Source of the DNA: Candidatus Omnitrophota bacterium
Lineage (GTDB): Bacteria > Omnitrophota > Gorgyraeia > Duberdicusellales > 4484-171
Direction of reading: 5' to 3'
NCBI GenBank assembly: GCA_003154195.1
Contig: PMCS01000031.1
Coordinates: forward strand, 18,054 to 82,053
Length of the DNA: 64,000 nt
The translations under genes were made by a program, and so were the position numbers. Below, one piece after another: positions 371-23,140 of this stretch (its first letter is position 1; the number at the start of each line of letters is the position of its first letter). The notes beneath the pieces are model-generated. The model saw only the letters and a list, made by a program, of their open reading frames with translations, was not told the origin of the DNA and did no database searches.

Positions 371-883
371 TTAATTAGTAAAAAAATTGTCGTCGGCGAC
401 TACCGTATTGTCTATGCTATCGCCGTGAGCCGTAATGTAGTTCGCGTCCACATCATGCAGGGACGTATAATTCATCTTATTCACCTCTGCCGAAGCGCTG
501 TCAGTCCGGGAACCGGAAGTTACGGTTTGGTTGCCGCCAGTACGCGTGGTTACAGAAAAAGCATTATGAGACATAGTATCTTGTGCGTCCACTGCTACTC
601 CTGCGGCGGAGACGCCGTCCGCGTCGCCACCTATTTTGGCTATTGGACTGTTAGCATTAACGCCGGTACTCTCCGTAATCCCCGATGCTTCCGACACCAC
701 ACGTTGCTTAGTCGTTGTTTCCGTCGCGGAAAATTGTTCGCCCATCCTGCCGGCCGAATCTTTTAACTGCCCCTGGAAACCTCTCTTGACAAATACCTGC
801 ATAACCAGAATTGCCGCTACTACCACAGCGATCAACAAGGCATATTCTAAAATCGATTGCGCTTTTCTTGATTTTACCAACAT
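371..883 (-). CDS. Flp/Fap-family type IVb pilin with extended Ser/Thr-rich C-terminal domain
   Basis: ORF 371..928, trimmed to the internal Met (MLVKSRKAQSILEYALLIAVVVAAIL...). It has the Flp motif (basic leader, Q-S/G, xLEY, hydrophobic helix). An RBS GGAGGTGA lies upstream. Confidence 0.7.
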   Translation of the reverse strand: MLVKSRKAQSILEYALLIAVVVAAILVMQVFVKRGFQGQLKDSAGRMGEQFSATETTTKQRVVSEASGITESTGVNANSPIAKIGGDADGVSAAGVAVDAQDTMSHNAFSVTTRTGGNQTVTSGSRTDSASAEVNKMNYTSLHDVDANYITAHGDSIDNTVVADDNFFTN

Positions 884-1015
884 CCTTCTCACCTCCCTCA
901 ATGAGGCTTCACCGAACGCAAGTCCCACAAGGGACGCCGCGTGAGGTGGTCGCCGAATTTCCCGCCTATGGCGTGATCCCGCTTCCTTAGATATAATTAT
1001 TCAAGGAAGGCGGGA

Positions 1016-1077
1016 GACCCCGACGAGTATCGCAAAAATATCGAAGAGATTTTTGCGATAGTTTACGAGTCGGGGTA
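1016..1077 (-). promoter_or_regulatory. Two-tier conserved hairpin/palindromic motif upstream of a long Flp pilin (copy a)
   Basis: gaCCCCGACgagtATCGCAAAAATatcgaagagATTTTTGCGATagtttacgaGTCGGGGtac; it has inner 11-bp and outer 7-bp inverted repeats. Confidence 0.6.
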
Positions 1078-1108
1078 CGTTTCTCAAACATATTTTCAAT
1101 TAACGACC

Positions 1109-1215
1109 GGCCAGGGCAACGGTGATGATACCCGTATGGGTTAAGGTTATGGCTTTAAAATATTTTTTAAGCCTTAGCCTTTACCCAAACCGGCTTCTTA
1201 ACCCTAGCCTTAACC
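1109..1215. repeat. Palindromic intergenic repeat family A (TTAGGG-like arms), copy 1
   Basis: Left arm GGCCAGGGCAACGGTGATGA..., right arm ...CCAAACCGGCTTCTTAACCCTAGCCTTAACC. The arms are imperfect reverse complements. Confidence 0.65.
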
Positions 1216-1235
1216 ATTTTCACAATACCTGTCTC

Positions 1236-1691
1236 TTATAATTTGTAATCACTCACACCCAGGCTATAATCCGAGCTGGCGTTAAAATCTTCCGCCTCGA
1301 CGTTGTCGGTCTTGGACATTGACTTCACGGTTTGATTGCCGCCGGCTCTTTTCGTTACCGAATACGAACTCTTGCTCGGGTCGCCGGTAATCGTTCCTGC
1401 ATCGGTCACTCTCACCGCAGAGTCGACAAAGTTAGAAAAATTACCGTCCGTCGCTGTTTCTTCCACGATCTGCTGAACATCACCCGGAGTCATGTTGCTC
1501 GTCTGTAAAGTTTTCGTTCCGGTCGCGGAAAATTGCTCGCCCATCCTGCCGGAAGCATCTTTCAACTGCCCCTGAAAACCTCTCTTGACAAATACCTGCA
1601 TAATCAGGATTGCCGCCACCACTACGGCGATCAATAAGGCATATTCTAAGATTGACTGCGCTTTTTTTGATCTTACCAACATCCCTCTCAC
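1236..1691 (-). CDS. Flp-family pilin paralog (long form)
   Basis: MRGMLVRSKKAQSILEYALLIAVVVAAILIMQVFVKRGFQGQLKD... The N-terminal ~50 aa are near-identical to the 371..883 and 1995..2477 paralogs and the C-terminus is variable. Confidence 0.75.
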   Translation of the reverse strand: MRGMLVRSKKAQSILEYALLIAVVVAAILIMQVFVKRGFQGQLKDASGRMGEQFSATGTKTLQTSNMTPGDVQQIVEETATDGNFSNFVDSAVRVTDAGTITGDPSKSSYSVTKRAGGNQTVKSMSKTDNVEAEDFNASSDYSLGVSDYKL

Positions 1692-1757
1692 CCCCTCAAT
1701 GAGGCTTCACCGAACGCAAGTCCCACAAGGGACGCCGCGTGAGGCGGTAGCCGAATT

Positions 1758-1820
1758 GACCCCGACGAGTATCGCAAAAATATCGAAGAGATTTTTGCGA
1801 TAGTTTACGAGTCGGGGTAC
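1758..1820 (-). promoter_or_regulatory. Same hairpin motif (copy b)
   Basis: Near-identical to copy a, located upstream of 1236..1691. Confidence 0.6.
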
Positions 1821-1850
1821 GTTTCTCAAACATATTTTCAATTAACGACC

Positions 1851-1970
1851 GGCCAGGGTAACGGTGATGAGGCCGGTATGAGCTATGGTCAAGGTCATGG
1901 CTTTAAAATATTTTTTAAGCCTTAGCCATCACCTTTACCCAAACTGGCTTCTTAGCCTTAGCCTTAACCC
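1851..1970. repeat. Repeat family A, copy 2
   Basis: Same architecture; it lies between two pilin genes. Confidence 0.65.
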
Positions 1971-1994
1971 AGTATTTACAATACCGCCAACTTA

Positions 1995-2477
1995 CTAATT
2001 CATGTCGAACCTGGAATCAGGGCTATCACCGCCATTAGTGGGTCCGGTAAAATTCATTTTAAAATTTTCCTCGCTGGCCGAATCCGTGGCAGATGACGTA
2101 TTTACGCTTTGTGTGCCGCTGTCCCTGGCGCTTGCGGAATAAGCCCCCTTTTCCAAAACTCCCTCTCCGCTCACATCCCCCATAAGCCTTGGCGTATCTA
2201 TAGCCATGTTGCCGCCCCCCGCACGATCGCTAAAATTGTAATCGGTTGCCGTTTCATCTGTAACATTTTGCCCGGTACTGTTGGTGTGCTGCTTACTCGT
2301 CGAACCGCTGACAGAGAATTGCTCGCCCATCCGGTCGGAAGAGTCTTTTAACTGCCCCTGAAAACCTCTTTTGACAAATACCTGCATGATCAGGATCGCC
2401 GCCACGACCACAGCGATCAATAAAGCATATTCTAAGATTGATTGCGCTTTTTTTGATCTTACCAACATCCCTCTCAC
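1995..2477 (-). CDS. Flp-family pilin paralog (long form)
   Basis: MRGMLVRSKKAQSILEYALLIAVVVAAILIMQVFVKRGFQGQLKD..., with a variable Ser/Thr/Asn-rich C-terminus. Confidence 0.75.
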   Translation of the reverse strand: MRGMLVRSKKAQSILEYALLIAVVVAAILIMQVFVKRGFQGQLKDSSDRMGEQFSVSGSTSKQHTNSTGQNVTDETATDYNFSDRAGGGNMAIDTPRLMGDVSGEGVLEKGAYSASARDSGTQSVNTSSATDSASEENFKMNFTGPTNGGDSPDSRFDMN

Positions 2478-2491
2478 CCCCTCTTAAGAAT

Positions 2492-2611
2492 GGTTAGGGT
2501 AATGGTGATGAGGCCCGTGTGGGTTATGGTTAAGGTAAGGGCTTTAAAGAAATATTTTAAGCCCTAACCATTACCTTTACCCAAACCGGCTTCCTGGCCC
2601 TAGCCTTAACC
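2492..2611. repeat. Repeat family A, copy 3
   Basis: GGTTAGGGTAATGGTGATGAGGCCCGTGTGGGTTATGGTTAAGGTAAGGGC...GCCCTAACCATTACC...CCCTAGCCTTAACCC. Confidence 0.65.
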
Positions 2612-2643
2612 CAGTATTTATATACTGGCCTTACCCGATGAAA

Positions 2644-3084
2644 TCATTGACTCAAATTGCCCACACTGCCTAAAGTCTCTACTTCCACCGATGACGTGAT
2701 TGACGTCTGGTTCTGGATCTTTTCTTCGCCGCCGCCGCGATGCATGACGCTGGTGGAATCACTGCCGGTGATCTGGGTGTTGCGGTATTGCTGGTTGTAG
2801 ATAGAGATGTTGCTCGCAGTATCCCTTAGTCGAGATACCCCCCCTGGGGCCAAAGCATCGATAGCGTCGCCGCTAAAGTCGCTGGAAAGCGCCGACGCAC
2901 CCGCGCCATCCTCTATTCTTGCACCCACCGCAGCATGACCAAGCAAATCCACTGTCTGGGCGCCTTTTTTGCGCATCCCGGCTTTCAGCGCCGCGCCTAA
3001 GACTCCCGTGACCACCGCGATGATCAAGCCTAACGTAATCGCGTATTCCGCTGTTGACTGCGCTTTTCTTAATCTTACAAGCAT
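2644..3084 (-). CDS. Flp-family pilin paralog (long form, conserved C-terminal block)
   Basis: Trimmed to MLVRLRKAQSTAEYAITLGLIIAVVTGVLGAALKAGMRKKGAQTV. The C-terminal ~55 aa (NISIYNQQYRNTQI...VGNL) are shared with the 3844 and 4546 paralogs. Confidence 0.75.
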   Translation of the reverse strand: MLVRLRKAQSTAEYAITLGLIIAVVTGVLGAALKAGMRKKGAQTVDLLGHAAVGARIEDGAGASALSSDFSGDAIDALAPGGVSRLRDTASNISIYNQQYRNTQITGSDSTSVMHRGGGEEKIQNQTSITSSVEVETLGSVGNLSQ

Positions 3085-3187
3085 TATTGTCACCCCCTCA
3101 ATGAACACATTATTTTTTCCCCGCCCCAAGGCGGGACTCCGCTTACACTTCGCAAGCTGAAAGCGCAGAAAAAATAATAGTGTGAAT

Positions 3188-3250
3188 TGATCCCGACGAG
3201 TATCGCAAAAATATCAAAGAGATTTTTGCGATAGTTTACGAGTCGGGATA
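3188..3250 (-). promoter_or_regulatory. Same hairpin motif (copy c)
   Basis: gatCCCGACgagtATCGCAAAAATatcaaagagATTTTTGCGAT...GTCGGGatac, located upstream of 2644..3084. Confidence 0.6.
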
Positions 3251-3310
3251 CATTCAATTACATTTTCAATGAACCGCCACCGACTGAAGTCGATGGTTTT
3301 GGCATAAAAC

Positions 3311-3505
3311 TTACATACCGAAAACCCCCGCGGTCGCGTTATTGGCAGTTTTATTCATCGCCCCGATTACTTTGCTGTAAGTAGAGTTAACCGCCGACTG
3401 GAAACCGCCGGTACGAAACAAAATTACCATGATTACCGCGATAATCGCCGCTAAAAACAAGGTATATTCCAAAACTCCCTGCGCTTTTCTAAACCTTTTC
3501 ATCAT
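3311..3505 (-). CDS. Flp-family pilin, short (64 aa) canonical form
   Basis: MMKRFRKAQGVLEYTLFLAAIIAVIMVILF... This is the classic Flp G-VLEY motif, with the short length typical of Flp. Confidence 0.75.
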   Translation of the reverse strand: MMKRFRKAQGVLEYTLFLAAIIAVIMVILFRTGGFQSAVNSTYSKVIGAMNKTANNATAGVFGM

Positions 3506-3527
3506 TCTCCCCCCCCTTCTTTAAAAT

Positions 3528-3642
3528 GGCCAGGCAACGGTAATGATGCCCGTATGGGCTATGGCTAAGGTCGTGACTGTGAATTCGTATCAACCCTGAC
3601 CATTGCCTTAACCCAAACCGGCTTCCTAGCCCTAACCTTAAC
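3528..3642. repeat. Repeat family A, copy 4
   Basis: Same arms; the central part differs. Confidence 0.6.
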
Positions 3643-3843
3643 CAATCATTATTAAGGTATATTTTCACTCAGCCCCCGCTCCAGGGTAACAACAAACATC
3701 TTATCTTCTGGTTGCTTAAAGTTACAAAAGAATTATGTTTTTATGAAGGTAACCTTAAGCAATTTTCCGTAACTTGGGTAATCTTAAGTAACTTTTACCT
3801 TAAATCCCTGCCGGCTTCTTAACGCCGCCCTTAGCCGATGAAA

Positions 3844-4248
3844 TCATTGAGTCAAGTTGCCCACACTGCCTAAAGTCTCTACTTCCACCGATGACGTGCT
3901 TGATGTCTGGTTCTGGATCTTTTCTTCGCCGCCGCCGCGATGCATGACGCTGGTGGAATCACTGGCGCTGATCTGGGTGTTACGGTACTGCTGGTTGTAG
4001 ATAGAGATGTTGCCGGCGGAGGAGCTTAAAACAACGCCTCCCGAGTCGCCTACCGAGCTTACCGCAATACCAGTACCATCTTCCTTCTCCACCCCGGAAC
4101 CCCCCAACAACTCCACTGTCTGGGCGCCTTTTTTGCGCATCCCGGCTTTCAGGGCCGCGCCTAAGACTCCCGTGACCACCGCGATGATCAAGCCTAAGGT
4201 AATCGCGTATTCCGCTGTTGACTGCGCTTTTCTTAACCTTACCAACAT
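3844..4248 (-). CDS. Flp-family pilin paralog (long form)
   Basis: Trimmed to MLVRLRKAQSTAEY.... The N- and C-terminal blocks are near-identical at nucleotide level to 2644..3084 and 4546..4959, with a divergent middle. Confidence 0.75.
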   Translation of the reverse strand: MLVRLRKAQSTAEYAITLGLIIAVVTGVLGAALKAGMRKKGAQTVELLGGSGVEKEDGTGIAVSSVGDSGGVVLSSSAGNISIYNQQYRNTQISASDSTSVMHRGGGEEKIQNQTSSTSSVEVETLGSVGNLTQ

Positions 4249-4320
4249 CCTTCTCACCCCCTCAATGAGACTTGGCCGAGCGCGCATGCTGCGCATGTGC
4301 AGCGAGGCCGTAGTCGAATT

Positions 4321-4383
4321 GACTCCGGCGAATGTCCTAAAAATATCGAAGAGATTTTCAGGACGGCTTATGAGCCGGAGTAC
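4321..4383 (-). promoter_or_regulatory. Same hairpin motif with compensatory substitutions (copy d)
   Basis: gaCTCCGGCgaatGTCCTAAAAATatcgaagagATTTTCAGGACggcttatgaGCCGGAGtac. Both stems are changed but base pairing is preserved. Confidence 0.6.
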
Positions 4384-4392
4384 ATTAAAAAT

Positions 4393-4540
4393 GGCCAGGG
4401 TAATGGTAATGAGGCCCGTATGGGTTATGGTTAAGGCTGTAAATTCGTATCAGCCCTGACCCTTGCCTTAGCCTAAACCGGCTTCTTAACCCTAACCTTA
4501 ACCTTTTTTCAATACGGGCTTCCTAGCCCTAACCTTAACC
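4393..4540. repeat. Repeat family A, copy 5 (with duplicated right arm)
   Basis: The right arm ...CCTAACCTTAACC occurs twice in tandem. Confidence 0.6.
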
Positions 4541-4545
4541 AATCA

Positions 4546-4959
4546 TCACTCGGTCAAGCAGCCCACACTGCCTAAAGTCTCTACTTCCACCGATGACGTG
4601 CTTGATGTCTGGTTCTGGATCTTTTCTTCGCCGCCGCCGCGATGCATGACGCTGGTGGAATCACTGCCGGTGATCTGGGTGTTACGGTACTGCTGGTTGT
4701 AGATAGAGATGTTGCCGCCGCCGGCTAAATGAATGCCGTTGGTGTTAGTGTCGAGGCCCTCAGCGAGCGCTCGATCGCCGCTATCATCGCCGGTAGCGGC
4801 ATCTTTAAGCAAATCCACTGTCTGGGCGCCTTTTTTGCGCATCCCGGCTTTCAGGGCCGCGCCTAAGACTCCCGTGACCACTGCGATGATCAAGCCTAAA
4901 GTGATCGCGTATTCCGCTGTTGACTGTGCTTTTCTTAACCTTACCAACATCCTTCTCAC
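4546..4959 (-). CDS. Flp-family pilin paralog (long form)
   Basis: MRRMLVRLRKAQSTAEYAITLGLIIAVVTGVLGAALKAGMRKKGAQTVDLL..., with a conserved C-terminal block. Confidence 0.75.
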   Translation of the reverse strand: MRRMLVRLRKAQSTAEYAITLGLIIAVVTGVLGAALKAGMRKKGAQTVDLLKDAATGDDSGDRALAEGLDTNTNGIHLAGGGNISIYNQQYRNTQITGSDSTSVMHRGGGEEKIQNQTSSTSSVEVETLGSVGCLTE

Positions 4960-5020
4960 CCCCTCAATGAGCGCATTATTTTTGAAGCGTTACTATGCTT
5001 CAAAAATAATAGCGCGAATT

Positions 5021-5083
5021 GACCCCGGCGAATGTTCAAAAATTATCGAAGAGAATTTTTGAACGGCTTATGAGCCGGGGTAC
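5021..5083 (-). promoter_or_regulatory. Same hairpin motif with compensatory substitutions (copy e)
   Basis: gaCCCCGGCgaatGTTCAAAAATtatcgaagagaATTTTTGAACggcttatgaGCCGGGGtac. Confidence 0.6.
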
Positions 5084-5113
5084 GTTTCTCAAACATATTC
5101 TCAACTAACGACC

Positions 5114-5322
5114 GGCCCGGGCAATGGTAATGCTCTCCTTCGCTCTTCGAGCTTCGGAGAAGTCTCGCCGAAACCTAGCCATCAAATATGGCTAGGTTTC
5201 GCCTATAAGGCGAACTTCAGCGAAGGCGGAATGCCGGTATGGGTTATGGTTAAGGCTGTAAATTCGTATCAGCCCTGACCCTCGCCTTAGCCTAAACCGG
5301 CTTCTTAACCCTAACCTTAACC
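5114..5322. repeat. Repeat family A, copy 6 with nested GC-rich insertion
   Basis: A inserted module ctccttcgctcttcgagcttcggagaagtctcgccgaa plus a perfect hairpin acctagccatcaaatatggctaggt sits inside the A element. Confidence 0.6.
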
Positions 5323-5363
5323 GAACATTATCCCAATGAACCCCCGTTCATCTGCTGCAAAAC

Positions 5364-5558
5364 TTATTGCGAGAAAACTTCCTTAGTCATCTTATCGGTA
5401 GTATTCCCCATCGCCCCTATTACCTTGCCGTAAGTGGCGTCAAGCGATGTCTGCAAGCCGCCCCTACGGAATAAAATAACCATGGTTACCGCGATAATCG
5501 CCGCTAAAAATAAGGTATATTCCAAAACTCCCTGCGCTTTTCTTAATCTTACCAGCAT
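5364..5558 (-). CDS. Flp-family pilin, short (64 aa)
   Basis: MLVRLRKAQGVLEYTLFLAAIIAVTMVILF..., a paralog of 3311..3505. Confidence 0.75.
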   Translation of the reverse strand: MLVRLRKAQGVLEYTLFLAAIIAVTMVILFRRGGLQTSLDATYGKVIGAMGNTTDKMTKEVFSQ

Positions 5559-5569
5559 CCTTCTCCCCT

Positions 5570-5719
5570 TTATTTCTTATACTCCAACTGCTCCTGGATC
5601 TGTTTTAACTTAGCATTCATCGACCGGGTGATGTATTTATGGGCTATCATCATTGCCGCCATAATCACCACAATCAACATCGCGTAATCCAGCATGCCTT
5701 GCGCTTTTGTTTTTTTCAT
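5570..5719 (-). CDS. Flp-like pilin, divergent short form
   Basis: ORF 5570..5803 trimmed to MKKTKAQGMLDYAMLIVVIMAAMMIAHKY.... Its start codon overlaps the stop of the upstream gene (ATGA). Confidence 0.55.
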   Translation of the reverse strand: MKKTKAQGMLDYAMLIVVIMAAMMIAHKYITRSMNAKLKQIQEQLEYKK

Positions 5720-5943
5720 AATTTTTTGTTCGGATCGGCGTTGTATTTGGGCACATCCATGGTATTGGTAATAAAATATTTTGACGTTCGGAAATGATTC
5801 CATAATTTTTGCTTGATTAAGTCGTTAAACTTACTGCCGGCGGCGACAAACATTATCACCATCAAAGCAGTGAGAATAATATATTCAAGCATGCTCTGGC
5901 TGCGCCGCAATACCGGTAATCCTGAATCAATTATTTTGGCCAT
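5716..5943 (-). CDS. Flp-like pilin, divergent form
   Basis: ORF 5716..6057 trimmed to MAKIIDSGLPVLRRSQSMLEYIILTALMVIMFVAAG.... It has the SQSMLEY motif and a hydrophobic helix. Confidence 0.5.
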   Translation of the reverse strand: MAKIIDSGLPVLRRSQSMLEYIILTALMVIMFVAAGSKFNDLIKQKLWNHFRTSKYFITNTMDVPKYNADPNKKL

Positions 5944-6310
5944 AGTCGCCGTAGTAAACCCCGTTAGAGGACTTTGTTCCTTCACCCCGATAGGAAATTC
6001 TTTTCTAACGAGGCAAGCGGCGCCGGCAAAAAAACAAAACTCTATACCTCCAGACATGGATATAGCTACCCCTTCTCTCCGCTTGCCGGAGCCTGCCCCT
6101 TAGCTGCCTCCCCTACCATCATAAATATACCACAATCACTACGTTGAATTCAAGCTAATAAATGCGAAATTGAAATGATTTTGAAACCGTTTCCAATAAT
6201 ACTATTTTAACCCGGAAAATACCTTCCGCCAGCATTTTATTTATACGCGTTTGCCTTGAGTTATGTTACAAACGCCGTGCTTACCCCCCAAAATACGGGC
6301 ATTTTTCCGG

Positions 6311-7753
6311 TTAAAGAAGAAAAATTCTCTTATTATCCAAATAAAATCCTTCTTTATTAAAAGCATCTTTGAGGGTGCGGGAAATATCTTTTACGATTAT
6401 CTTATAAAAGTTCTTGCCGACGGCCAGGTAACCGGCCGCGTCGGGCGACGATGCCGCCGTCGGTACCGGCGGCGCCGGCATTTTGCGGTTGAACGCGGCG
6501 GCTAAAATATTTTTAATCTCGATAAAATCCTCCGCTTTAGCGAGGGGAATTTTTTTCGCCGGCATTGGGTAATCGGCGATCCCGGGCGCCGGGCTGCCTT
6601 TAAAAAAATTTTCAAATATTTCCAGGTCATCCGGGAATTTTTTTTCCGGAAACGGCCAGAAATATAAATAGTTGCCCAGTAAAGGCAGAAAATCTTTCCG
6701 GTCCGTCATAAAACACCATACGGGAAGGGCCTTTTTCTTGCGAAAAACCGGAATATTATTGACGATAATACCCCGGCTGTCTTTATCCCGGGAGAACCTG
6801 GCTAAAGCGGAAGCGTAAAAAAAATCCTGCCCCGCCGGAGAAGGTATTTTTTTAATTCTTGTTTGCCGGCTTAAATAAGCGGCACCCTGGGATAAAAATC
6901 TGGGATGATAACCGACAAAAAAAGAAGTTTTGACGGGCGCGGGAAAAGATATTTTTTCCCACGCTTCGCCGGCAGGGCTGAGGAATTCTATTTCTTTTAC
7001 GCCCTTCGTCAAGCCGTTTAAAAAATCCAAAGCTAAGGGCGAAAGATAACCGAAACTTTTCGTATAATTTACCAGAACGGCCTTTGCCGAAAGCATCCGG
7101 GTGATGATTTCTTTCGCCCGCGTTAACGGTGCGCTAAAATTTCCCATCGGGCAATCGCCCCGCCAAAACGTCGTCATCGCGGCGTCGCAATAAGAAACCG
7201 CGCCGCCCTCAAAATAAAATTTTATCGTCCTTGTTTCTTTGCGGGTTTCTTTAAATCCCGCTAAATCTAATTGGAGGTTTGCCGCCGGCAGGGTTTTTAA
7301 AAATTCGTTTATTTTGCCCAGGGACAGATGGCCAAGCCCGGCTGCCCGTAAGAATCCCCGGGCCGCGATATTTTCTTTCAGGCCCAGAGCGGGAACCCGG
7401 AAAACCAGTAAACCGGTGATCTTGCGCAGGAGGTCTTCCTCGAACTGAGGGAAAAACGGCTTGAGGGAAGAAACTGCGTAATCAATAAGGCCGAACTTTG
7501 AATCGAAGCCGCGCAGGAGGAGGGGAAAACAATCATAGTTTTCCCCTTTTTTATAAAGGGTAATCGATTTTTTGCGCCCCTTCCTTTCTTTTACGCCGCG
7601 AGAAGAAAAAATATTCTGGATTGAACTTTTGGAGAGCTTGATCTTGTGTTTTTCGTCTAAAAACCGGGACAACGCCCTTACCCCCAGATAAGGGTTTTTC
7701 TTTCTTGCGCTGATGATTAAACTACGCACCCGCGGATTTATCTTGGCCCGCAC
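6311..7753 (-). CDS. Hypothetical 480-aa protein with N-terminal helix-turn-helix-like segment
   Basis: The N-terminus NPYLGVRALSRFLDEKHKIKLSKSSIQNIF looks HTH-like and the rest is unrecognised. It sits between the tad ATPase and the pilin array. Domain fold and function are not assignable from sequence alone. Confidence 0.3.
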   Translation of the reverse strand: MRAKINPRVRSLIISARKKNPYLGVRALSRFLDEKHKIKLSKSSIQNIFSSRGVKERKGRKKSITLYKKGENYDCFPLLLRGFDSKFGLIDYAVSSLKPFFPQFEEDLLRKITGLLVFRVPALGLKENIAARGFLRAAGLGHLSLGKINEFLKTLPAANLQLDLAGFKETRKETRTIKFYFEGGAVSYCDAAMTTFWRGDCPMGNFSAPLTRAKEIITRMLSAKAVLVNYTKSFGYLSPLALDFLNGLTKGVKEIEFLSPAGEAWEKISFPAPVKTSFFVGYHPRFLSQGAAYLSRQTRIKKIPSPAGQDFFYASALARFSRDKDSRGIIVNNIPVFRKKKALPVWCFMTDRKDFLPLLGNYLYFWPFPEKKFPDDLEIFENFFKGSPAPGIADYPMPAKKIPLAKAEDFIEIKNILAAAFNRKMPAPPVPTAASSPDAAGYLAVGKNFYKIIVKDISRTLKDAFNKEGFYLDNKRIFLL

Positions 7754-7968: not shown

Positions 7969-10137
7969 TTAGACCTTGAAGATGTCTTCCGAAAGCAGGA
8001 TGCCCTGCATTTTCATGTCCGGGAAAAAGCTGGGGATATAACCGGTGGGCTTAAACTCGCCGATGATGCTGCCGTCTTTATCCACGCCGGATTGGACAAA
8101 AGAAAAAATGTCTTTTAAGCCGACGTGCATCTCGTCCACCATGCCGGTGATCTCGGTAATCGCCAAAACCCTTCTTGTGCCGTCGCTTAAGCGCGCCGTA
8201 TGGACGATAAGGTCGAGCGCCGAAGCAATCATCTCGCGGATGGCGCGGATCGGCAATTCCACGCCGCTCATTAAAATCATGGAGTCAAGCCTGATTAACA
8301 CGTCGTGGGTGGAGTTGGCGTGCAGCGTAGACATACTGCCGTCATGGCCGGTATTCATCGCCTGCAACATATCCAGCGCCTCGATGCTGCGGCATTCGCC
8401 GACGATAATCCGGTCGGGCCTCATACGCAGGGTATTGCGAAAAAGCTCCCTGATCGTAACGGCGCCTTTGCCCTCGATATTCGGCGGCTTGGATTCCAGG
8501 CGTATCCAATGATCCTGGTCGAGTTTCAATTCCGCCGAATCCTCGATCGTGATGATACGTTCGCGGTCGGGAATGAACAAAGAAAGAATATTAAGAAAAG
8601 TCGTTTTACCGCTTCCCGTTCCCCCGGAAACCATAATGTTTTTTCTCCCCACCACGCAGGCTTTTAAAAAATCGGCCATGCTGTTACTCAGCGACTTAAG
8701 GCCGACCAGTTCTTTGATGGAAAAACGTTCTTTGCGAAACTTTCGGATGGTAAGCGAAGGCCCGGTTAAAGCCAGAGGCGGGATAATCGCGTTAACGCGG
8801 GAACCGTCCGGCAAGCGCGCGTCCACATAAGGCGACGACTCGTCGATCCTCCTGCCTAACGGCGCCAGAATCCGCTCGATGACGATCTTTACCTGTTCGT
8901 CGGTGGTAAAATGCTTATCGGTAAGAGTAATTTTTCCGGCACGCTCGATATACACCTGGTCTTTATTATTGACCATGACTTCGGTAATGGTCGCGTCCCT
9001 CAATAAATCTTCCAGCGGCCCCAGGCCCAGAGCTTCGTCGATGATTTCTTTGATGATTTGTCTTCGCATTTCCAACGAGGCGGCGATGCCGTCGATTTCC
9101 CTGGTCAGAATATTGCTTAAAATTTTTTCCGCCTGTTCTTTCAGCTTATGCATTTGCTCCACGTCGGTAGTAAGCGTATCGAGCGGCAGCCGCTTGAGGT
9201 TCATTTCCTCGATCAGCTTAAGATGCGCCCGTTTTTTAAGTTTTATCACGTTATCGGTTTCTTTATCGATTTTAACCTTCTCATTCTTCTGCTCGGACAT
9301 GCCCAGATCAGTCCAGAAATCTACCTTGGGTTTTTGCGCCATCTCATCGCCCCTGACAACCATCTCGGCCAGGCTCTTTTGAAACACAAAAATATCTTCC
9401 CGGGTGGCTAAAAGAACAGCCAAGGCGTCGATTGCGGAAGTAATTTTGCTGTCGGGGGTATCGATGATAATAGGGATCCCCATATTCAAGGCGAGGCCGG
9501 CGGCTTTTCCGTCGGAAGGGACCTGGGAAATAATATCGATCGGCAAAAGCGCTTTTATTTCCGAAGAACTTACGCCGCCTTTACTCTCAAAACGGTTTAA
9601 AATACCTTTTACCATGGAAAGAGGAAAAGTCATTATTTCCAAAGCTTCGAGGGTTAATTCGGTCTGATACAGGGAAAGGACATCGGGGTTTATCACCAGC
9701 AAAATAAGGTTTGATTTATCAAAAATATTTACGGTAATATCGCTGATATTTTTTCCGCCGTCGATAATAATAAAATCGTATTCCAGGGCTTTAAAAAAAC
9801 CCAGGGCTTCGGCTACGTTGGCGGCGGTAAGCGAACCGGCCGAACGCAAGCTTAAAATCGACGGCAAAAAATCAAGAAAAGGATTTATCGCGATTAAAAA
9901 GTTTCCCTTTAACAGTTCCTTGTTGTCTTTAATCGCGCTCCAGTCATGGATTATATCTACCAGCGAAGCCTTGGGCTTAAGATTGCACATCTTGGACATA
10001 TCAAAAGGCGCGCCAAAATCCATCTCCAAAAGCAGGACTTTTTTATTTTTCCGGGAAAGGCTTATGGCCGTATTAAGCGCCAGCGTAGTTTTACCTACGC
10101 CGCCTTTTGTGCTGAAAAAAGTTATCGTCTTAGTCAT
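7969..10137 (-). CDS. Fused ParA/MinD-like (TadZ/CpaE-like) ATPase domain + CpaF/TadA secretion ATPase
   Basis: N-terminus MTKTITFFSTKGGVGKTTLALNTA has the deviant Walker A of ParA/MinD/CpaE. The C-terminal ~450 aa have the VirB11/CpaF signature (MVSGGTGSGKTTFLN, IEDSAELKL, ECRSIEALDMLQAMNTGHDGSMSTLHANS). Confidence 0.8.
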   Translation of the reverse strand: MTKTITFFSTKGGVGKTTLALNTAISLSRKNKKVLLLEMDFGAPFDMSKMCNLKPKASLVDIIHDWSAIKDNKELLKGNFLIAINPFLDFLPSILSLRSAGSLTAANVAEALGFFKALEYDFIIIDGGKNISDITVNIFDKSNLILLVINPDVLSLYQTELTLEALEIMTFPLSMVKGILNRFESKGGVSSSEIKALLPIDIISQVPSDGKAAGLALNMGIPIIIDTPDSKITSAIDALAVLLATREDIFVFQKSLAEMVVRGDEMAQKPKVDFWTDLGMSEQKNEKVKIDKETDNVIKLKKRAHLKLIEEMNLKRLPLDTLTTDVEQMHKLKEQAEKILSNILTREIDGIAASLEMRRQIIKEIIDEALGLGPLEDLLRDATITEVMVNNKDQVYIERAGKITLTDKHFTTDEQVKIVIERILAPLGRRIDESSPYVDARLPDGSRVNAIIPPLALTGPSLTIRKFRKERFSIKELVGLKSLSNSMADFLKACVVGRKNIMVSGGTGSGKTTFLNILSLFIPDRERIITIEDSAELKLDQDHWIRLESKPPNIEGKGAVTIRELFRNTLRMRPDRIIVGECRSIEALDMLQAMNTGHDGSMSTLHANSTHDVLIRLDSMILMSGVELPIRAIREMIASALDLIVHTARLSDGTRRVLAITEITGMVDEMHVGLKDIFSFVQSGVDKDGSIIGEFKPTGYIPSFFPDMKMQGILLSEDIFKV

Positions 10138-10227: not shown

Positions 10228-11817
10228 TTATTTCCTTTCGCGGTAAACAATGGGAATATCGATTCTTAATTCTTTAAGTTCAACCTGCGCCGGGAAAGGA
10301 GGATAAACAAGCTTCTGCACCAGCCTGAGCGCGGCCTCGTCAAATACCTTATACCCCGATGTCTGCGCCACATAGGCGTCTTTTAATTGGCCGACATCGT
10401 CAAGGATGAGTTTGACCAAAACGTTTCCCTGCCAGCCGGTATTTACCAGTTCGAGGGGATAACTGATATTATCGGTAATCTTTTTTTGAATCGCTAAAGC
10501 GTAATCCTGAAGCTCAAAAGGAATGCTTCTCATTGTTTCCATAGCGTCGGACTCTTTCTCTTCTTTTTTAATTTCTTTAGCCGGGGCGGCTTGTTTTTCT
10601 CCGGCTTTTTCCATACCCGCCGAATAAACAATCCTGGGCGTTAGGGTGATATAGAACTCCGCGTCGTTGTTAAAGGGCATGCTTTTATGCCGGAAGAATG
10701 CGCCTAAAATAGGCGTATCCGACAGCCAGGGAAACTTGGCGATAGCTTCCTCTGTTTTCTTTCTGATTAAACCGCCGATGGCGATGGTTTCGCCGTCGGC
10801 CATATAAATTTGCGTGGAAACACTGCGGTTAAGCGTCGGGTAGGCCTTGGCCGTAGTCGAAGAGCCGCTGCTGATCGATTCCGCCGCCTCGAGGTCGGTA
10901 ACCGATATCTTCAACATCACGTTTATTTTGCCCTTTTTATCCACCACCGGGCTGATTGAAAGATTTATGCCGTAAGGTTTATATTCAACGGTCGTACCGG
11001 CGCCGCCGCCAATTGAAGTAATATTGGTATTAAAAATCGGTTTTTCTCCGCCTACCGTGATCTCCGCGGTTTTACCGCTTTGACAGGTCACCCGGGGCCG
11101 GGAAAGGATTCTCGCCTTACCTTCGGTTTCTAAAAGATCGAGCGAGTAACTAAAGCTGTCGCCGGAACGGCCATATTGTCCCAACTTATAAAATTCTGCG
11201 AAATGGCCCAGGGAATTCCTATCCGTGGGCAAAGTTTCACCGATACCGGTGTTGCTCGGGAAATTAAAACCGAGGCTGCGGGTAGCATCGTGGCTCAGCT
11301 CCAGCACTTCCACGGCGATCTCGATCAAAACATCTTCATCCGCCTCCACGATAAAATCCCCGATTTTAGCCTTATAAGCCGCTAAAATAGCCATTAATTT
11401 TTCTTTTTCCTGTTTCTTAAGTTCGCCGAAAAGAAAAACTTTATCCTCGCTGTCCATCGCCTTTACGGTAATCGCGTCCATGCCCAATTCCTTCAAAACT
11501 TTCTCGATTTTATTTTTAAGCGCGGTCATTTCTTCCGCGTAAACTTTTACGTCAAAATTATGTTCACCGAAAGCGTCCCACCATTGAAGCTTTGCCTCCC
11601 CCTTGGCTTTCGCGACCAGCACCAGTTCTTTCTCGCTGGCGGAAACTACGTCCAGGATTTCCGGTCTGCTTACCGAAATCCTTTGGGGATTGTTGACCGG
11701 TATCACCTGCGTATCGCCCACATAAAAAATAAGAGCGGAAAGATCGTAGCGATCTGCGGCAGGCAGCGATAAAGGCGACATCAAACAGGCAGTAAGAAAA
11801 ATAATTATCGTTTTCAT
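10228..11817 (-). CDS. Tad secretin (CpaC/RcpA-like) with C-terminal TonB_C-like domain
   Basis: Signal peptide, then the secretin core (GETIAIGGLIRKK...FPWLSDTPILGAFFRHKS...FYITLTPRIV). This is followed by ~110 aa matching the TonB C-terminal fold pattern (ISYPLELVNTGWQGNVLVKLILDDVGQL...SGYKVFDEAALRLVQKLVYPPFP). Confidence 0.75.
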   Translation of the reverse strand: MKTIIIFLTACLMSPLSLPAADRYDLSALIFYVGDTQVIPVNNPQRISVSRPEILDVVSASEKELVLVAKAKGEAKLQWWDAFGEHNFDVKVYAEEMTALKNKIEKVLKELGMDAITVKAMDSEDKVFLFGELKKQEKEKLMAILAAYKAKIGDFIVEADEDVLIEIAVEVLELSHDATRSLGFNFPSNTGIGETLPTDRNSLGHFAEFYKLGQYGRSGDSFSYSLDLLETEGKARILSRPRVTCQSGKTAEITVGGEKPIFNTNITSIGGGAGTTVEYKPYGINLSISPVVDKKGKINVMLKISVTDLEAAESISSGSSTTAKAYPTLNRSVSTQIYMADGETIAIGGLIRKKTEEAIAKFPWLSDTPILGAFFRHKSMPFNNDAEFYITLTPRIVYSAGMEKAGEKQAAPAKEIKKEEKESDAMETMRSIPFELQDYALAIQKKITDNISYPLELVNTGWQGNVLVKLILDDVGQLKDAYVAQTSGYKVFDEAALRLVQKLVYPPFPAQVELKELRIDIPIVYRERK

Positions 11818-12908
11818 CTTTTAATCGGCGTCCGGCTTGGCGCTTCTGCTACCGGCGGCAGCTTATCTTCAGGAGGCTGCGGCTGATCGGTAACATTCAT
11901 TGAATCGACGTGTGACCCTCTTTGAATTTGTATTTTCCGGGGTTCCTTTTTTTTCATCATGGGAGACACCAAGGATTGCTTTTTCCTGGTGTCTTTCGGT
12001 TCAAAAGGCATAATACTCTCCAAGTACTGCATCAGCGTATCCCAGTTAGCCGGCGGCATCGCTTGAACCTTGGCGTCGGTAGGCGAACGTAAGGCAATCT
12101 GGATTACGCCCTGGGTCATCACAAAAGCAAGAAGATTAGCCTCATTGGGCGCTAAAGCCAGAGTGACAAAAGACGGGGTACCTTGCGATGATTCCGAGGG
12201 GGATTTTTTTTGGACCTTGTTGACGAGTTCTCCGAAAACATTTTTCTTTTCTTTGGGTTTACCGAGATAATCGTCGCCTACCGCCAGGATTAAAACATTT
12301 TGAAACAAGGGAACGGTAAGGATGCGGCCATTCGGCTGCGGCGGCTGCTGCGGCGCTTGCTGTTTTGTGCCCTGCTTCTTTTCTTCATTCTTTTCTTCCT
12401 TCTCCTCCGGCGGCAAAGGAACCATCATCGTAGCAATGATATCGATATAATCTCCGGGTTTAACCATACCGGCTAGGCTCTGCATATTTTCCGCCTTAAT
12501 CGGCACCGCCCGCTTACCGGCAGGCGTGATCTTGGAAAGAGTAACTTCCATCGGCTCATCCGGCAGGATCGCCGGGCCGATTTTATTGGTAGTAATCGGC
12601 TCGTCTTTAGAAATATTCACCAAAGCGCGCTTCCCGGCAACCGCCTCAATGGCCAGAATCGCGTTGGGCGGAATAAATTGTTGGGGGAAAACACGCAGAT
12701 CCAGCGCGCGCGGAGAGATTTCGCCGCCCGAGGGGATTGCTTCTTTTGCTACGATGACCGGCACAAGCGTTTTATATTGTTCGGAAAAAGCCTGTTTCAA
12801 TTCAAGGGAAATTTTTTCCCGCTCCTTGCTCAAATAAGAATGGAGCAAGAAAACGGCAACGCCGCTTAATGCCAGGCCGATGACGATAAAGATAACTTTT
12901 CTCAGCAT
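11814..12908 (-). CDS. Flp pilus assembly protein CpaB/RcpC-like
   Basis: N-terminal TM anchor and a SAF-like domain. It has PGDYIDIIAT and TVPLFQNVLILAVGDD motifs typical of CpaB. It overlaps the secretin gene by 4 nt. Confidence 0.7.
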   Translation of the reverse strand: MLRKVIFIVIGLALSGVAVFLLHSYLSKEREKISLELKQAFSEQYKTLVPVIVAKEAIPSGGEISPRALDLRVFPQQFIPPNAILAIEAVAGKRALVNISKDEPITTNKIGPAILPDEPMEVTLSKITPAGKRAVPIKAENMQSLAGMVKPGDYIDIIATMMVPLPPEEKEEKNEEKKQGTKQQAPQQPPQPNGRILTVPLFQNVLILAVGDDYLGKPKEKKNVFGELVNKVQKKSPSESSQGTPSFVTLALAPNEANLLAFVMTQGVIQIALRSPTDAKVQAMPPANWDTLMQYLESIMPFEPKDTRKKQSLVSPMMKKKEPRKIQIQRGSHVDSMNVTDQPQPPEDKLPPVAEAPSRTPIKR

Positions 12909-13014: not shown

Positions 13015-13956
13015 TCACTTTATTTCGCTCTCTTTTATTTCAACCTTGGCATTTTTCATAAGATTTTTTACCACCTCTTCCAGCCTCTTCTGCTGCTCCA
13101 TATAAACAAGGCCTTTTTTCAAATCATCCCAGATTTCGGAAAGAGATTTTTGCTTGCCGCCTTTTTTCGCTTCCAGCTTAAGGATATAATAGCCTTTCGG
13201 GCCCTTAAAATACTGGCTGGTCTGGCCGGGCTCAATAGCATCAGAAAAAGCGACCCGGTCAAACTCCTCGCTTTTCATATCGCCTCGCTTAATAAAGTCA
13301 AGGTCACCGCCTTTTGCCGCGGATTCCGATTTAGAAATACGCGTCGCCATACTCGCGAACTCTTCTTCTCCCAGCAAAAGCTTGGCCAGGGCGGCTTTCG
13401 CCTCCCCTTCGGTAGCCACCACGATTTCTCTGATCCGTCTTTCTTCCGGTTCTTTAAATTGATCTTTGTAGGTATTGTAATAATCCTCGATGGCGGAGTT
13501 GGAAACATTTACTTTATTCATCTCGTCTTTAACCAGCTGAAGCACAAGCAATTGCTGCTTGGTATCCTCCAGGCCCTTAAGCACATCGGAGCTTTTATCC
13601 AATCCTCTTTTTTCCGCCTCTTGATACAAAAGAACCCTCCGGGCTACCTCATTCTTCAAATAGGCTATTTTTTTCTCTTTGGTATCTATTTTTGATTCCG
13701 GCTTATCTTCGGGAACGAGGCCGTTATAACGATTGATCTCTTCGTCCAAACTTTCCTGCGTAACGGGATACCCGTCAACCGTAGCAATTACTGTGCCTTT
13801 TGCCGCCGGCACCGCCGCTTGAAGAGCCGAGGTTGATGCCGCCACCTGCTGAACCGGTTTAGGTTCTTCCTTTTTTTTGCCGAAATTGATTTTATCGCAT
13901 CCATAAAATTGGATTAAAAAAATACCCGCCGCCAAAAGCAAAATTTTATTTCTCAT
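13015..13956 (-). CDS. Parvulin-type peptidyl-prolyl isomerase (SurA/PrsA-like), secreted
   Basis: Signal peptide plus a PpiC domain pattern (RISKSESAAKGGDLDFIKRGDM...FDRVAFS...GQTSQYFKGPKGYYILKLEAKK). Confidence 0.6.
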   Translation of the reverse strand: MRNKILLLAAGIFLIQFYGCDKINFGKKKEEPKPVQQVAASTSALQAAVPAAKGTVIATVDGYPVTQESLDEEINRYNGLVPEDKPESKIDTKEKKIAYLKNEVARRVLLYQEAEKRGLDKSSDVLKGLEDTKQQLLVLQLVKDEMNKVNVSNSAIEDYYNTYKDQFKEPEERRIREIVVATEGEAKAALAKLLLGEEEFASMATRISKSESAAKGGDLDFIKRGDMKSEEFDRVAFSDAIEPGQTSQYFKGPKGYYILKLEAKKGGKQKSLSEIWDDLKKGLVYMEQQKRLEEVVKNLMKNAKVEIKESEIK

Positions 13957-14198: not shown

Positions 14199-14813
14199 AT
14201 GGAAAAAATAACGCGAGTAGTCCTCGATACCAGCATTTTCGTGAGCCCCGAATCGCGCTATTGCTTTGGCGAAACTCCCTTCCTGGCTTTAAGCAATTTT
14301 CTTGATTTTTTGAAAGACAAAAAAAATGTCGCCTGCTTGATACCGCCTTCCGTCCATGAAGAATTAATGAAATTCATCGAAGAAAAAATACCGGTAGAAA
14401 AATCCATAAGGCTTGAGAAAAAACCGCCATCCTCTTACGAAACGCCCATCACGGCGCTTTTCCTCTATGAGTTCATCGAAGAAATGCGCAACCGCGTCAA
14501 TAAAGGTTTAAGGATTGCCGAAAAATATGCGCGGCGGGGACTGGCCGGAGGCAAAGAAGAAGAAATCGTAAAAGCCGTGCGCGAAGAATACCGCGTAGCC
14601 CTGCGGGAAGGTATTTTAGACAGCAAGGAAGATTTTGACTTGATTTTACTGGCCAAAGAATTGAACTGTTACCTGGCGACCAGTGATAACGGCCTGATCA
14701 AATGGGCGCATAAATTAGGCATCGCCTGCCTTTCGGCGCCGGAGTTGAAAGAACTGATCAGCCAGGCTGCGGGTATCAAATCACAAACCACGGACCAAAA
14801 ACCAGACGAATAA
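14199..14813 (+). CDS. PIN-domain protein
   Basis: VVLDTSIFVSPES at the N-terminus and LLAKELNCYLATSDNGLI at the C-terminus have the PIN acidic motif layout. It is the only convincing plus-strand gene in the window. Confidence 0.5.
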   Translation: MEKITRVVLDTSIFVSPESRYCFGETPFLALSNFLDFLKDKKNVACLIPPSVHEELMKFIEEKIPVEKSIRLEKKPPSSYETPITALFLYEFIEEMRNRVNKGLRIAEKYARRGLAGGKEEEIVKAVREEYRVALREGILDSKEDFDLILLAKELNCYLATSDNGLIKWAHKLGIACLSAPELKELISQAAGIKSQTTDQKPDE

Positions 14814-14843: not shown

Positions 14844-15257
14844 TTATTCTTTAATTTTCAGTATAATTTCAATATGGTCGGTATTAATAATGGTATTATG
14901 GACGGGGCAATTCTGGATAAACCTTAAAAAAACTTCGTTTTCCTCGCGGGAAAGCTTAGCGTCACAAAAAGTCTCTACCTTTATATTAACGAGCCGGGCC
15001 GGGCTGCTGGATGTAAATTCAGCTCCGGCTTTTATTTTAAGCTCTTTAAAATCTTTGGCGTGCGTCGTTAAATACCTTTTCGCGTAGACCCCGACGCAGG
15101 ACGCCAGCGAAGAAAGAAATAATTCCAAAGGGTCGGGGCCGGCGGGAACATAGTTTTCGCTTTTCTTGTCGGAATAAAAATTTACCCCGCTGGCTTGCGC
15201 CGCTATTGCGAATTTATCTTTTTCCCAAAAAGTAACCTCTACCGTCCGCGTTTCCAT
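14844..15257 (-). CDS. OsmC/Ohr-family peroxiredoxin-like protein
   Basis: PDPLELFLSSLASCVGVYAKRYL has the OsmC conserved Cys motif. Confidence 0.65.
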   Translation of the reverse strand: METRTVEVTFWEKDKFAIAAQASGVNFYSDKKSENYVPAGPDPLELFLSSLASCVGVYAKRYLTTHAKDFKELKIKAGAEFTSSSPARLVNIKVETFCDAKLSREENEVFLRFIQNCPVHNTIINTDHIEIILKIKE

Positions 15258-21841: not shown

Positions 21842-21858
21842 AAGGAATTTTTTTATTT

Positions 21859-22422
21859 TCAGCTTCTCGGAGTAACCAGATAATTGACGCTGAACGTTTC
21901 TTTGGTAACCGGATTGCCGACTGTAACATTCATACCGATCATAGAAATATTGCTGATATTACCCGCAATACCAGCGGTAATATCATAACCGGTATTATTA
22001 TAATACCGGAAAGAAAAATTAGCCAGTTCCGCGAGAAGAATATTTGACGACTCAAATGTTCCGTCGCTGGCGCTGTCGATTTCATAATAAAGGCGCTTAT
22101 TGGCCGGAATAGACAGGCCATCGTAGCGATACCTATTGGTAGCGCTTCCCACAGTATACGCAATCATGGTAGCGTTTGTGGTACTCTGGATTGCCGACGC
22201 CGACAAAGAAATACCGCGCAGATCGCGCGCCATCCGCAGCACTGCCATACGGGCGTCATTGACGATGTCGCTTCTAAAAGTAGTAAAATTCCACACGTCC
22301 ATCGCCTGTTTTATAAAAGAGCCGAGCCCCACGCATAAGACTCCCACAATCACAATTACCGTCACCAGTTCGATTAAAGTAACGGATTTTTTAGAATATT
22401 TGAGAAATGTTAAAATTTTCAT
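21859..22422 (-). CDS. Type IV minor pilin (PilW-like), prepilin N-terminus
   Basis: KKSVTLIELVTVIVIVGVLCVGL is a prepilin-type N-terminal helix with Glu at +5. Confidence 0.65.
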   Translation of the reverse strand: MKILTFLKYSKKSVTLIELVTVIVIVGVLCVGLGSFIKQAMDVWNFTTFRSDIVNDARMAVLRMARDLRGISLSASAIQSTTNATMIAYTVGSATNRYRYDGLSIPANKRLYYEIDSASDGTFESSNILLAELANFSFRYYNNTGYDITAGIAGNISNISMIGMNVTVGNPVTKETFSVNYLVTPRS

Positions 22423-22433
22423 TGAAGTATAGT

Positions 22434-22901
22434 TTAAAATATCGTAAACAACACCGCCTTACTGCCGGATTTAGATACCGTGACATTTACCATTTTGTAA
22501 AGATCGGCGGCATTATCAGTAGTATTCCATTGGTTCACGGAAACATTGCAATAACGCACAACCACGCTCTTGGTAAAACCATCGCTGGCGTTGGCCGTTT
22601 TCTGGCGATACTCAGTTACATTAGTAGTCACGTTGCTGTAGTTGTCCCATCCGGGCAAAAACTGGGAAAACCGTGAATAATTACTTATGTTAGAATACCC
22701 CTGGGTGATTACGCTTTCCATCACTTGTTCGGCGGAAAAAGCCGCGCTTACTTCATTTTCGCTGAATCTCACCCGGCGCGTGGTTTCGCTTAAAAAACTC
22801 ATCAGGGTGGAAACGGCTATCCCCATCACGATGATTATCGCAACGAGTTCCATCAGGGTAACGGACTTGTGCAAAGATTTTAGAAATTTTAGTTTTTTCA
22901 T
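22434..22901 (-). CDS. Type IV minor pilin (PilV-like)
   Basis: ORF 22434..22985 trimmed to MKKLKFLKSLHKSVTLMELVAIIIVMGIAV.... It has the prepilin N-terminal helix. Confidence 0.6.
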   Translation of the reverse strand: MKKLKFLKSLHKSVTLMELVAIIIVMGIAVSTLMSFLSETTRRVRFSENEVSAAFSAEQVMESVITQGYSNISNYSRFSQFLPGWDNYSNVTTNVTEYRQKTANASDGFTKSVVVRYCNVSVNQWNTTDNAADLYKMVNVTVSKSGSKAVLFTIF

Positions 22902-23095
22902 TGACCACGCATATTTTGTTATACTGTAGGGGCCGACCCCTGTGCTCGCCTTGCCGAGCCATCGACTTCGCCGATATGCGAGCAAGGCGAGGCAGGTCGG
23001 CCCGCTATAATTTATTTATTAGCAATCAGCAAACATCCTTTCTCGCCTTGAATTTAACATATTTCCCAAAGATAAAAAAAAGTAATTATCTATCT

Positions 23096-23140
23096 GCGAT
23101 CATCAGCTTCTTCTCATCGGTGATCATCTGCATTTTACCG
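23096..23140. repeat. Short repeat family D (TCTTCTCATC-GTGATCATCTG)
   Basis: gatcatcagcttcttctcatcggtgatcatctg; second copy at 52240-52290. Confidence 0.4.

Follow-up and report, generated by a model that had tools for sequence, protein, structure and literature searches.

We analyzed a stretch of 64,000 nucleotides (nt) from a Candidatus Omnitrophota bacterium (contig PMCS01000031.1 of assembly GCA_003154195.1, positions 18,054 to 82,053), hereafter called the window, in which one gene at 7969..10137 on the minus strand joins two ATPases that are separate proteins in canonical Tad (Flp, type IVc) pilus systems. This gene is a single intact open reading frame (ORF) that starts with ATG and encodes 722 amino acids (aa) followed by a stop codon. 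An initial annotation made from the letters alone (the sequence-only reading) had described a single-polypeptide fusion of a ParA/MinD-type domain with the CpaF/TadA motor, without stating the strand, and the ORF is indeed uninterrupted. It encodes a complete CpaF/TadA, with N-terminal domains NTD1 and NTD2 and the catalytic domain, and, ahead of it in the same frame, an ATPase domain with a ParA fold of the TadZ/CpaE type. Judging from its Pfam architecture, its relatives and a predicted structure, the product is probably a TadZA-type fusion ATPase that belongs to the Tad pilus machinery of an Omnitrophota bacterium.

The ParA/MinD-fold domain (N-domain) occupies residues 1-250 (9388..10137). 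Three Pfam families of the ParA group matched residues 2-210 and all passed their gathering cut-offs (AAA_31, 57.8 bits; CbiA, 51 bits; ParA, 37.9 bits), so that the expected score as a ParA domain was borne out. The translation shows the deviant Walker A motif KGGVGKT at residues 11-17 (10087..10107), which is conserved in the fusions and includes the signature Lys11 and the P-loop Lys16. It agrees with K/RGGxGxS/T, the Walker-A-like consensus of TadZ/CpaE. No receiver-like domain stands before the ATPase domain: the Walker A motif begins at residue 11, and there is no room for one because the ORF cannot be extended upstream and the secretin gene lies 90 nt away. A flexible linker follows at residues 251-294 (9256..9387). 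The rest of the protein is the motor, made of the three-helix NTD1 of CpaF (residues 295-370, 9028..9255), recognized from the helices of the model and an alignment to Caulobacter CpaF, and of NTD2 with the catalytic C-terminal domain (residues 371-722, 7969..9027). The Pfam family T2SSE covered residues 370-648 with 213.3 bits (cut-off of 24.9). Walker A (GGTGSGKTT, residues 505-513), the Asp box (RIITIEDSAEL, residues 527-537), Walker B (RPDRIIVGE, residues 573-581) and the His box (TGHDGSMSTLHA, residues 596-607) are all intact, and their motif residues are invariant among 115 Omnitrophota sequences. The solved Caulobacter CpaF structures (8rkd, 8rjf, 9e24) matched the C-terminal part with 385 bits, the alignment beginning at CpaF residue 97, and Foldseek retrieved the same structures with an E-value of 5e-35 and 42-44% identity. 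Hence the proposal of a complete CpaF stands. The best NCBIfam match was TIGR03819, a TadA-family conjugal-transfer-associated ATPase model, at 324.2 bits; this is under its cut-off of 373.15, which places the protein outside that narrow family.

A missed stop codon or a frameshift could in principle have merged neighboring genes, since tadZ and tadA are normally adjacent and are adjacent yet separate in Bacillota, Actinomycetes and Chloroflexi. However, the exact 722-aa protein was found on 12 contigs that stem from independent assemblies of different samples, including ENA ERZ28653468, ENA ERZ28653714 and NCBI GCA_003154645.1, with identical neighbor genes on all of them. Approximately 115 homologues of 714-733 aa aligned in one frame over 99-100% of its length with 55-65% identity and the same Pfam architecture; those carrying a name belong to Candidatus Omnitrophota, and one full-length homologue lies on CP070807.1 (1.82 Mb). 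In addition, about 60 GTDB species representatives have one open frame running across both Walker A motifs, and the N-domain comes without the receiver domain that a canonical tadZ would have brought into such a merger. The masked stop codon that the sequence-only reading had named as a possible pitfall is therefore not there, assembly error was rejected on the strength of the identical contigs and full-length homologues, and an artefact is effectively refuted.

To see how the two parts are joined, we used an AlphaFold2 monomer model built from the 115 sequences. The ParA-fold region (residues 1-250) had a predicted local distance difference test score (pLDDT) of about 82-98 per 10-residue block, and residues 371-722 (NTD2 and catalytic domain) were modeled with moderate to high confidence. 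Residues 261-294 had a pLDDT below 50 and were disordered, apart from a short helix at 274-277, giving a disordered tether of approximately 35-45 residues between both parts. Three long helices of moderate confidence then appeared at 292-312, 326-347 and 355-370. Free Caulobacter CpaF starts with a disordered stretch that it can do without (NTD0, residues 1-79), followed by a three-helix motif (NTD1, residues 80-149). The fusion therefore looks in the model like an end-to-end join, with the linker in the position of NTD0 and the entire structured CpaF kept. The linker is variable, with the exception of a clade-specific patch, [DE]FWxxxG[LM]xE, at residues 273-282, in which F, W and G were counted in 97, 101 and 111 of 121 sequences in the respective alignment columns. 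This patch lies about 30 residues past the ATPase domain, roughly where stand-alone CpaE relatives end. The C-terminal tails of those relatives are basic and rich in aromatic residues, and a membrane-binding amphipathic helix has been predicted at the C-terminus of Caulobacter CpaE. As a hypothesis, the patch could thus be a remnant of the CpaE amphipathic helix. The linker also bears on whether translation might start internally and yield free CpaF besides or instead of the fusion. In-frame methionines do occur at residues 266 and 280, but neither is conserved (at 280, 85 of 121 sequences have Leu; at 266, most have Leu, Val, Phe or Ile), and a tagged full-length fusion has been detected and was functional in Bdellovibrio (bioRxiv 10.64898/2026.07.08.737194), which makes an internal start very unlikely.

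The genes around the fusion are those of a pilus locus. Directly upstream in the same operon lies an RcpA/CpaC-type secretin gene (10228..11817, minus strand; Secretin, 126.7 bits; T2SS-T3SS_pil_N, 33.9 bits), whose product ends in a TonB_C domain (50 bits). It is followed upstream by genes for a CpaB/RcpC alignment protein (11814..12908, minus strand) with RcpC and SAF domains (TIGR03177 at 130.9 bits, cut-off of 71) and for a SurA-like peptidyl-prolyl isomerase (PPIase) with Rotamase domains (13015..13956, minus strand). All three genes have the orientation of the fusion, and the order PPIase, CpaB, secretin, fusion is conserved across Omnitrophota. On the downstream side, Flp-like pilin genes, at least 10 in number, form an array over 371..6057 (minus strand), as recognized from translations, sub-threshold Flp_Fap matches and the genes called in a related locus (L084). 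Genes for TadB and TadC lie 8-10 kb downstream of the fusion in the related loci L002 and L003. On its gene content, the locus is probably a Tad system.

Several details of these neighbors deserve mention. In the secretin, TonB_C covers residues 450-526 beside the pilus N-terminal and Secretin domains, and might tether the secretin to the inner membrane or to peptidoglycan. A secretin with TonB_C also lies directly upstream of the fusion elsewhere in Omnitrophota, as seen with Pfam in L001-L003 and with tblastn, reaching query residue 526, in many loci. The tandem pilins are either short (49-64 aa) or long (134-185 aa) and share KAQ[GS]xxEY followed by a hydrophobic helix; two groups of three long paralogues each have near-identical N-termini and divergent C-terminal parts rich in Ser, Thr and Gly. 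Between the fusion and the pilin array, a 480-aa protein (6311..7753, minus strand) had no Pfam family above cut-off, only weak N-terminal matches to a helix-turn-helix model and an IS481-like model, and weak homologues of it were found downstream of the fusion in five other Omnitrophota loci (L012, L016, L027, L034 and L038). Upstream of the Tad operon, a PIN_5 ribonuclease gene, conserved at this position in the Omnitrophota loci L001, L002 and L084, is encoded on the opposite strand (14199..14813, plus strand), and an OsmC-like gene is found nearby (14844..15257, minus strand). No gene for a RomR-like protein or a receiver domain was found among the window ORFs scanned.

To learn to which family the N-domain belongs, we compared residues 1-300 exhaustively with 1.84 billion representatives by phmmer. 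The first matches were fusions and their fragments. Below approximately 110 bits, they were almost only proteins of 370-430 aa scoring about 90-110 bits and aligned at their residues ~140-385. Three sampled relatives of this length had a Response_reg domain and then a ParA-type domain, and two further clusters from this group were named 'pilus assembly protein CpaE' in IMG. We also searched with a profile made from distant fusion N-domains, and CpaE proteins mostly scored 110-200 bits and MinD-named proteins about 100 bits or less. This second search was word-indexed and returned zero fusions, so that it served to rank CpaE against MinD and not for taxonomy. Among solved structures, the best match was a ParA-family ATPase of Chlorobium tepidum (3ea0; 63.7 bits, template modeling (TM) score of 0.90-0.92), which may be the ATPase domain of the Chlorobium TadZ, although the literature searched does not make that link; MinD structures reached 44.9 bits and TM scores of about 0.78-0.86. 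Since the nearest unfused relatives have the receiver plus ParA build of CpaE/TadZ and not that of MinD, the N-domain is, by sequence relationship, TadZ-derived and has kept from TadZ/CpaE the ATPase half but not the receiver-like one. The sequence-only reading had called it TadZ/CpaE-like, and this is upheld for the ATPase half only.

An independently recruited MinD, FlhG or generic ParA module would be the alternative to a TadZ/CpaE derivative. Some sources name the homologues 'septum site-determining protein MinD', the deviant Walker A has both lysines as in MinD, the receiver-like domain is absent, and the top NCBIfam matches of the N-domain were minD_arch (68 bits) and minD_bact (59.6 bits). 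These scores, however, fall far short of the respective cut-offs of 201.75 and 212.9 bits, and the N-domain did not reach the cut-offs of the MinD models TIGR01968 and TIGR01969. The nearest unfused relatives in the exhaustive search are nearly all receiver plus ParA proteins named CpaE, and the profile search placed CpaE well over MinD. Moreover, most close CpaE relatives likewise carry KGGxGK[ST] (68 of the 97 representatives between 340 and 460 aa long, some of which are fusion fragments), and the domain is encoded within the tad operon at the exact position of tadZ. Based on both searches, a MinD origin was rejected, and recruitment from any of these families seems improbable.

The lead of the MinD models within NCBIfam nevertheless weighs against a TadZA-type fusion ATPase, and so do several other observations. 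The NCBIfam model for actinobacterial CpaE-like proteins gave only 26 bits on the N-domain. The monomer model had a predicted TM score (pTM) of 0.47 and is uninformative on contacts between both domains. Genes for TadB, TadC and TadV/prepilin peptidase were not found in the window, which ends approximately 8 kb downstream of the fusion. Finally, the fused N-domains of several other lineages have a degenerate Walker A and/or Walker B. Among these, P0149 and P0158 have KGGVGQT and an Asn where Walker B should have its Asp, and Acidobacteria have SGKGACGKT or GASGAAGAT. Because of these degenerate motifs, ATP turnover by the N-domain may not be essential to the role of the fusion.

The same degeneracy would fit an N-domain that serves for docking or as a scaffold and whose catalysis is irrelevant, in which case the fusion would only raise the local concentration without nucleotide-dependent regulation. 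The degenerate motifs occur in fusions of Acidobacteria, of 'Deltaproteobacteria' and of the P0149/P0158 clade, and TadZ has been reported as an ATP-binding protein with low ATPase activity. Conservation within the Omnitrophota clade argues otherwise. G12, G13, G15 and D126 are invariant in the 115 sequences, and K11, K16, D38 and D40 are kept in at least 90% of them, the window protein itself having E38. In the larger alignment, KGGVGK[TS] was present in 108 of 121 fusions. The nucleotide-site residues have thus been retained despite the fast divergence of the N-domain, which is only about 40% identical among Omnitrophota members, compared with 57-65% for the CpaF part. A purely passive scaffold therefore appears unlikely.

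We then surveyed how widespread the fusion is: an alignment that reached from the ParA domain into the CpaF NTD was used to scan the species representatives of GTDB, and each of the 80 scanned loci was checked for one open frame holding both ATPase sites. True fusions were found at approximately 60 of these 80 loci, which shows that the fusion is widespread and not peculiar to the window. Taxon names are those of the submitters' record titles and not a curated taxonomy. The fusion was present in every contig labeled Omnitrophota, in about 22 Bdellovibrionota contigs (Bacteriovoracaceae, Bdellovibrionales and Pseudobdellovibrionaceae), in three Acidobacteria/Terriglobia contigs, in two 'Deltaproteobacteria' contigs and in several unclassified metagenome-assembled genomes (MAGs). 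Walker A was degenerate in some of these ~60 fusions, and a receiver domain was absent from all the other fusions examined. Fusions suggested in Bacillota, Actinomycetes and Chloroflexi by matched residues 4-390 were rejected, as the ORF check showed adjacent separate genes. One such case is the cultured Clostridia strain Proteiniclasticum sediminis BAD-10, in which two unfused tadZ-tadA pairs (L051 and L056) lie about 8 kb apart on the same scaffold and which is a possible unfused comparator. Two proteins from outside the window (P0002 and P0003, 1156-1158 aa) scored ~1200-1430 bits against fusion queries, which is too high for a single T2SSE copy, so that tandem CpaF modules may be present in them. 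A 212-aa T2SSE fragment (L001, 12236..12871) comes after the fusion gene in CP070807.1, a complete genome.

The Bdellovibrionota family comprised at least 120 clusters in a dedicated search, with B. bacteriovorus not found by name among the best 120 matches. The window protein aligned with six Bdellovibrionota fusions (L044, L058, L061, L063, L066 and L067) in single high-scoring segment pairs of ~700-730 aa with 40-41% identity, and the identity of the N-domains was 23-28%. In a quick neighbor-joining tree of the CpaF domain, the fusions of Omnitrophota and Bdellovibrionota fell into separate clades with unfused CpaFs between them, and several contigs labeled 'uncultured Planctomycetales' that carry the fusion grouped with Omnitrophota. 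This tree has no support values, most unfused sequences were lost in the motif filter, and both a single and a repeated origin of the fusion are compatible with it.

The sequence-only reading took TadZ and TadA to be separate proteins in characterized tad loci. This no longer holds, since a TadZA of Bdellovibrio bacteriovorus has been studied experimentally in a preprint of July 2026 (bioRxiv 10.64898/2026.07.08.737194). In that protein, a receiver-less TadZ region of ParA/MinD type is connected through a flexible linker to TadA at the C-terminus. According to the same preprint, tadZA could not be deleted, joint depletion of TadZA and TadB impaired predation, the TadZ region plus linker bound the polarity hub RomR, and TadZA shuttled between the poles; RomR was proposed to supply the missing receiver function. 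In the preprint, the fusion figures as a peculiarity of a single predator, without a survey of its distribution (bioRxiv 10.64898/2026.07.08.737194). In the other literature that we searched, the term TadZA was not found for a fusion. Seymour et al. (2023) described Tad complexes in Omnitrophota with TadB/TadC related to those of Bdellovibrionales, and the fusion is not mentioned.

Like B. bacteriovorus TadZA, the window protein combines a receiver-less TadZ, a flexible linker and TadA in a single polypeptide. The likeness to Bdellovibrionota extends to CpaB, which is encoded about 2 kb upstream of the fusion there too, with the secretin detected by tblastn in only some of the loci, and to the end-to-end alignment with MAG fusions described above, a comparison in which the HD100 protein itself was not included. 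Unlike Bdellovibrio TadZA, it belongs to another phylum, and the Omnitrophota linker has its own conserved FW...G motif. Canonical Tad systems with separate TadZ/CpaE and TadA/CpaF (Aggregatibacter, Caulobacter) share both ATPase families and the gene neighborhood with the window, but the fusion differs from them in being one polypeptide, in having no receiver-like domain and in its fixed 1:1 ratio of TadZ to TadA. What is a free C-terminal amphipathic tail in CpaE would have become an internal linker. For Caulobacter, an in situ model fitted six CpaE dimers with receiver-mediated contacts around one CpaF hexamer, and CpaE is thought, although this is unproven, to form the outer cytoplasmic ring. 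The receiver-like domain of TadZ has been linked to localization and to ring contacts. Positioning or recruitment of the Tad machine has been shown only for Aggregatibacter, Caulobacter and Bdellovibrio.

Two more distant systems are also comparable. The N-domain resembles MinD, FlhG and FleN in its fold, in its deviant Walker A with the signature lysine, and in its switch Asp and Walker B Asp, but differs from them in scoring far below the MinD cut-offs, in lacking a minC or minE context and in having CpaE proteins as nearest relatives. In the archaellum, the FlaI-FlaH pair likewise consists of a CpaF-like hexameric motor ringed by a second ATP-binding protein, an analogy of working and not of family membership. 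FlaI was among the matches to the C-terminal part, and profile comparison has tied TadZ to components of type IV pili in archaea. Unlike the N-domain of the fusion, FlaH is a separate protein, described only as the secondary ATPase of its system (Denise et al.).

Besides the Tad locus, the window contains a second set of genes resembling type IVa pilus or type II secretion systems, at 57224..62202 and 19103..23659, all on the minus strand. It includes genes for an MshEN-containing ATPase of the PilB type (58029..59717), a second secretin that is only 26% identical to the Tad secretin (59816..61069), an STN/Secretin_N protein (61315..62202), N-methyl pseudopilins (57224..57787, 21859..22422 and 23135..23659) and a 912-aa protein that starts with PilX_N (19103..21841). 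Next to it, a 646-aa protein (23729..25669, minus strand) has a hydrophobic N-terminus and is rich in Glu and Lys, coiled-coil-like and internally repetitive (IARLKEQLQEKEDAHAETQRRLN occurs twice). The gene for this Glu/Lys-rich protein accounts for a strong dip in AT skew (-0.37) at 24001-26000.

How the fusion would work can be outlined from its parts. The C-terminal part would form the hexamer that drives insertion and extraction of pilins through TadB/TadC. By analogy with ParA/MinD proteins and TadZ, the N-domain, with Lys11, the P-loop Lys16, the switch Asp40 and the Walker B Asp126, probably forms ATP-dependent sandwich dimers. The tether would set one TadZ domain per motor subunit, compared with six free CpaE dimers per CpaF hexamer in Caulobacter, and the motor would thus carry its own assembly and positioning module. 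With a fixed 1:1 ratio and no receiver contacts, its cytoplasmic assembly would have to be unlike that of Caulobacter. The positioning module could couple the motor to the membrane and the secretin complex or, as with RomR in Bdellovibrio, to a partner protein, and its role may lie in polar placement, in recruitment or in gating the activity of the motor. The sequence-only reading had suggested that the fusion would hard-wire a polar-localization module to the motor. This is plausible as an inference; the receiver-like domain, which the literature links to localization, is absent from the fusion, and we count this against it.

The Omnitrophota are ultra-small bacteria, and many of them are suspected predators or parasites. 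On a broader and more speculative view, TadZA fusions would be an old receiver-less subclass of Tad systems, standard in Omnitrophota and Bdellovibrionota and also found in Acidobacteriota and others. The ParA domain, tethered in one copy to each motor subunit, would give the bidirectional motor a nucleotide-gated clutch or recruitment switch in cis rather than serve as a free polar landmark, and the subclass would be tied to attachment to prey or hosts in predatory and epibiotic bacteria. We offer this proposal tentatively and consider it rather unlikely to be right.

The kind of fusion itself has already been described in Bdellovibrio; what is new here is its phylogenetic breadth and its strict conservation in Omnitrophota. 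In this candidate phylum and in Bdellovibrionota it is the conserved form, and several other lineages have it as well. Tad systems are now labeled inconsistently as 'TadA', 'CpaF' or 'MinD', and the fusion provides a simple marker for classing them. A natural covalent TadZ-TadA protein with a 1:1 ratio is also a handy object for cryo-electron microscopy and for the biochemistry of the interaction between TadZ and the motor. The breadth of the fusion across lineages suggests adaptive design rather than accident.

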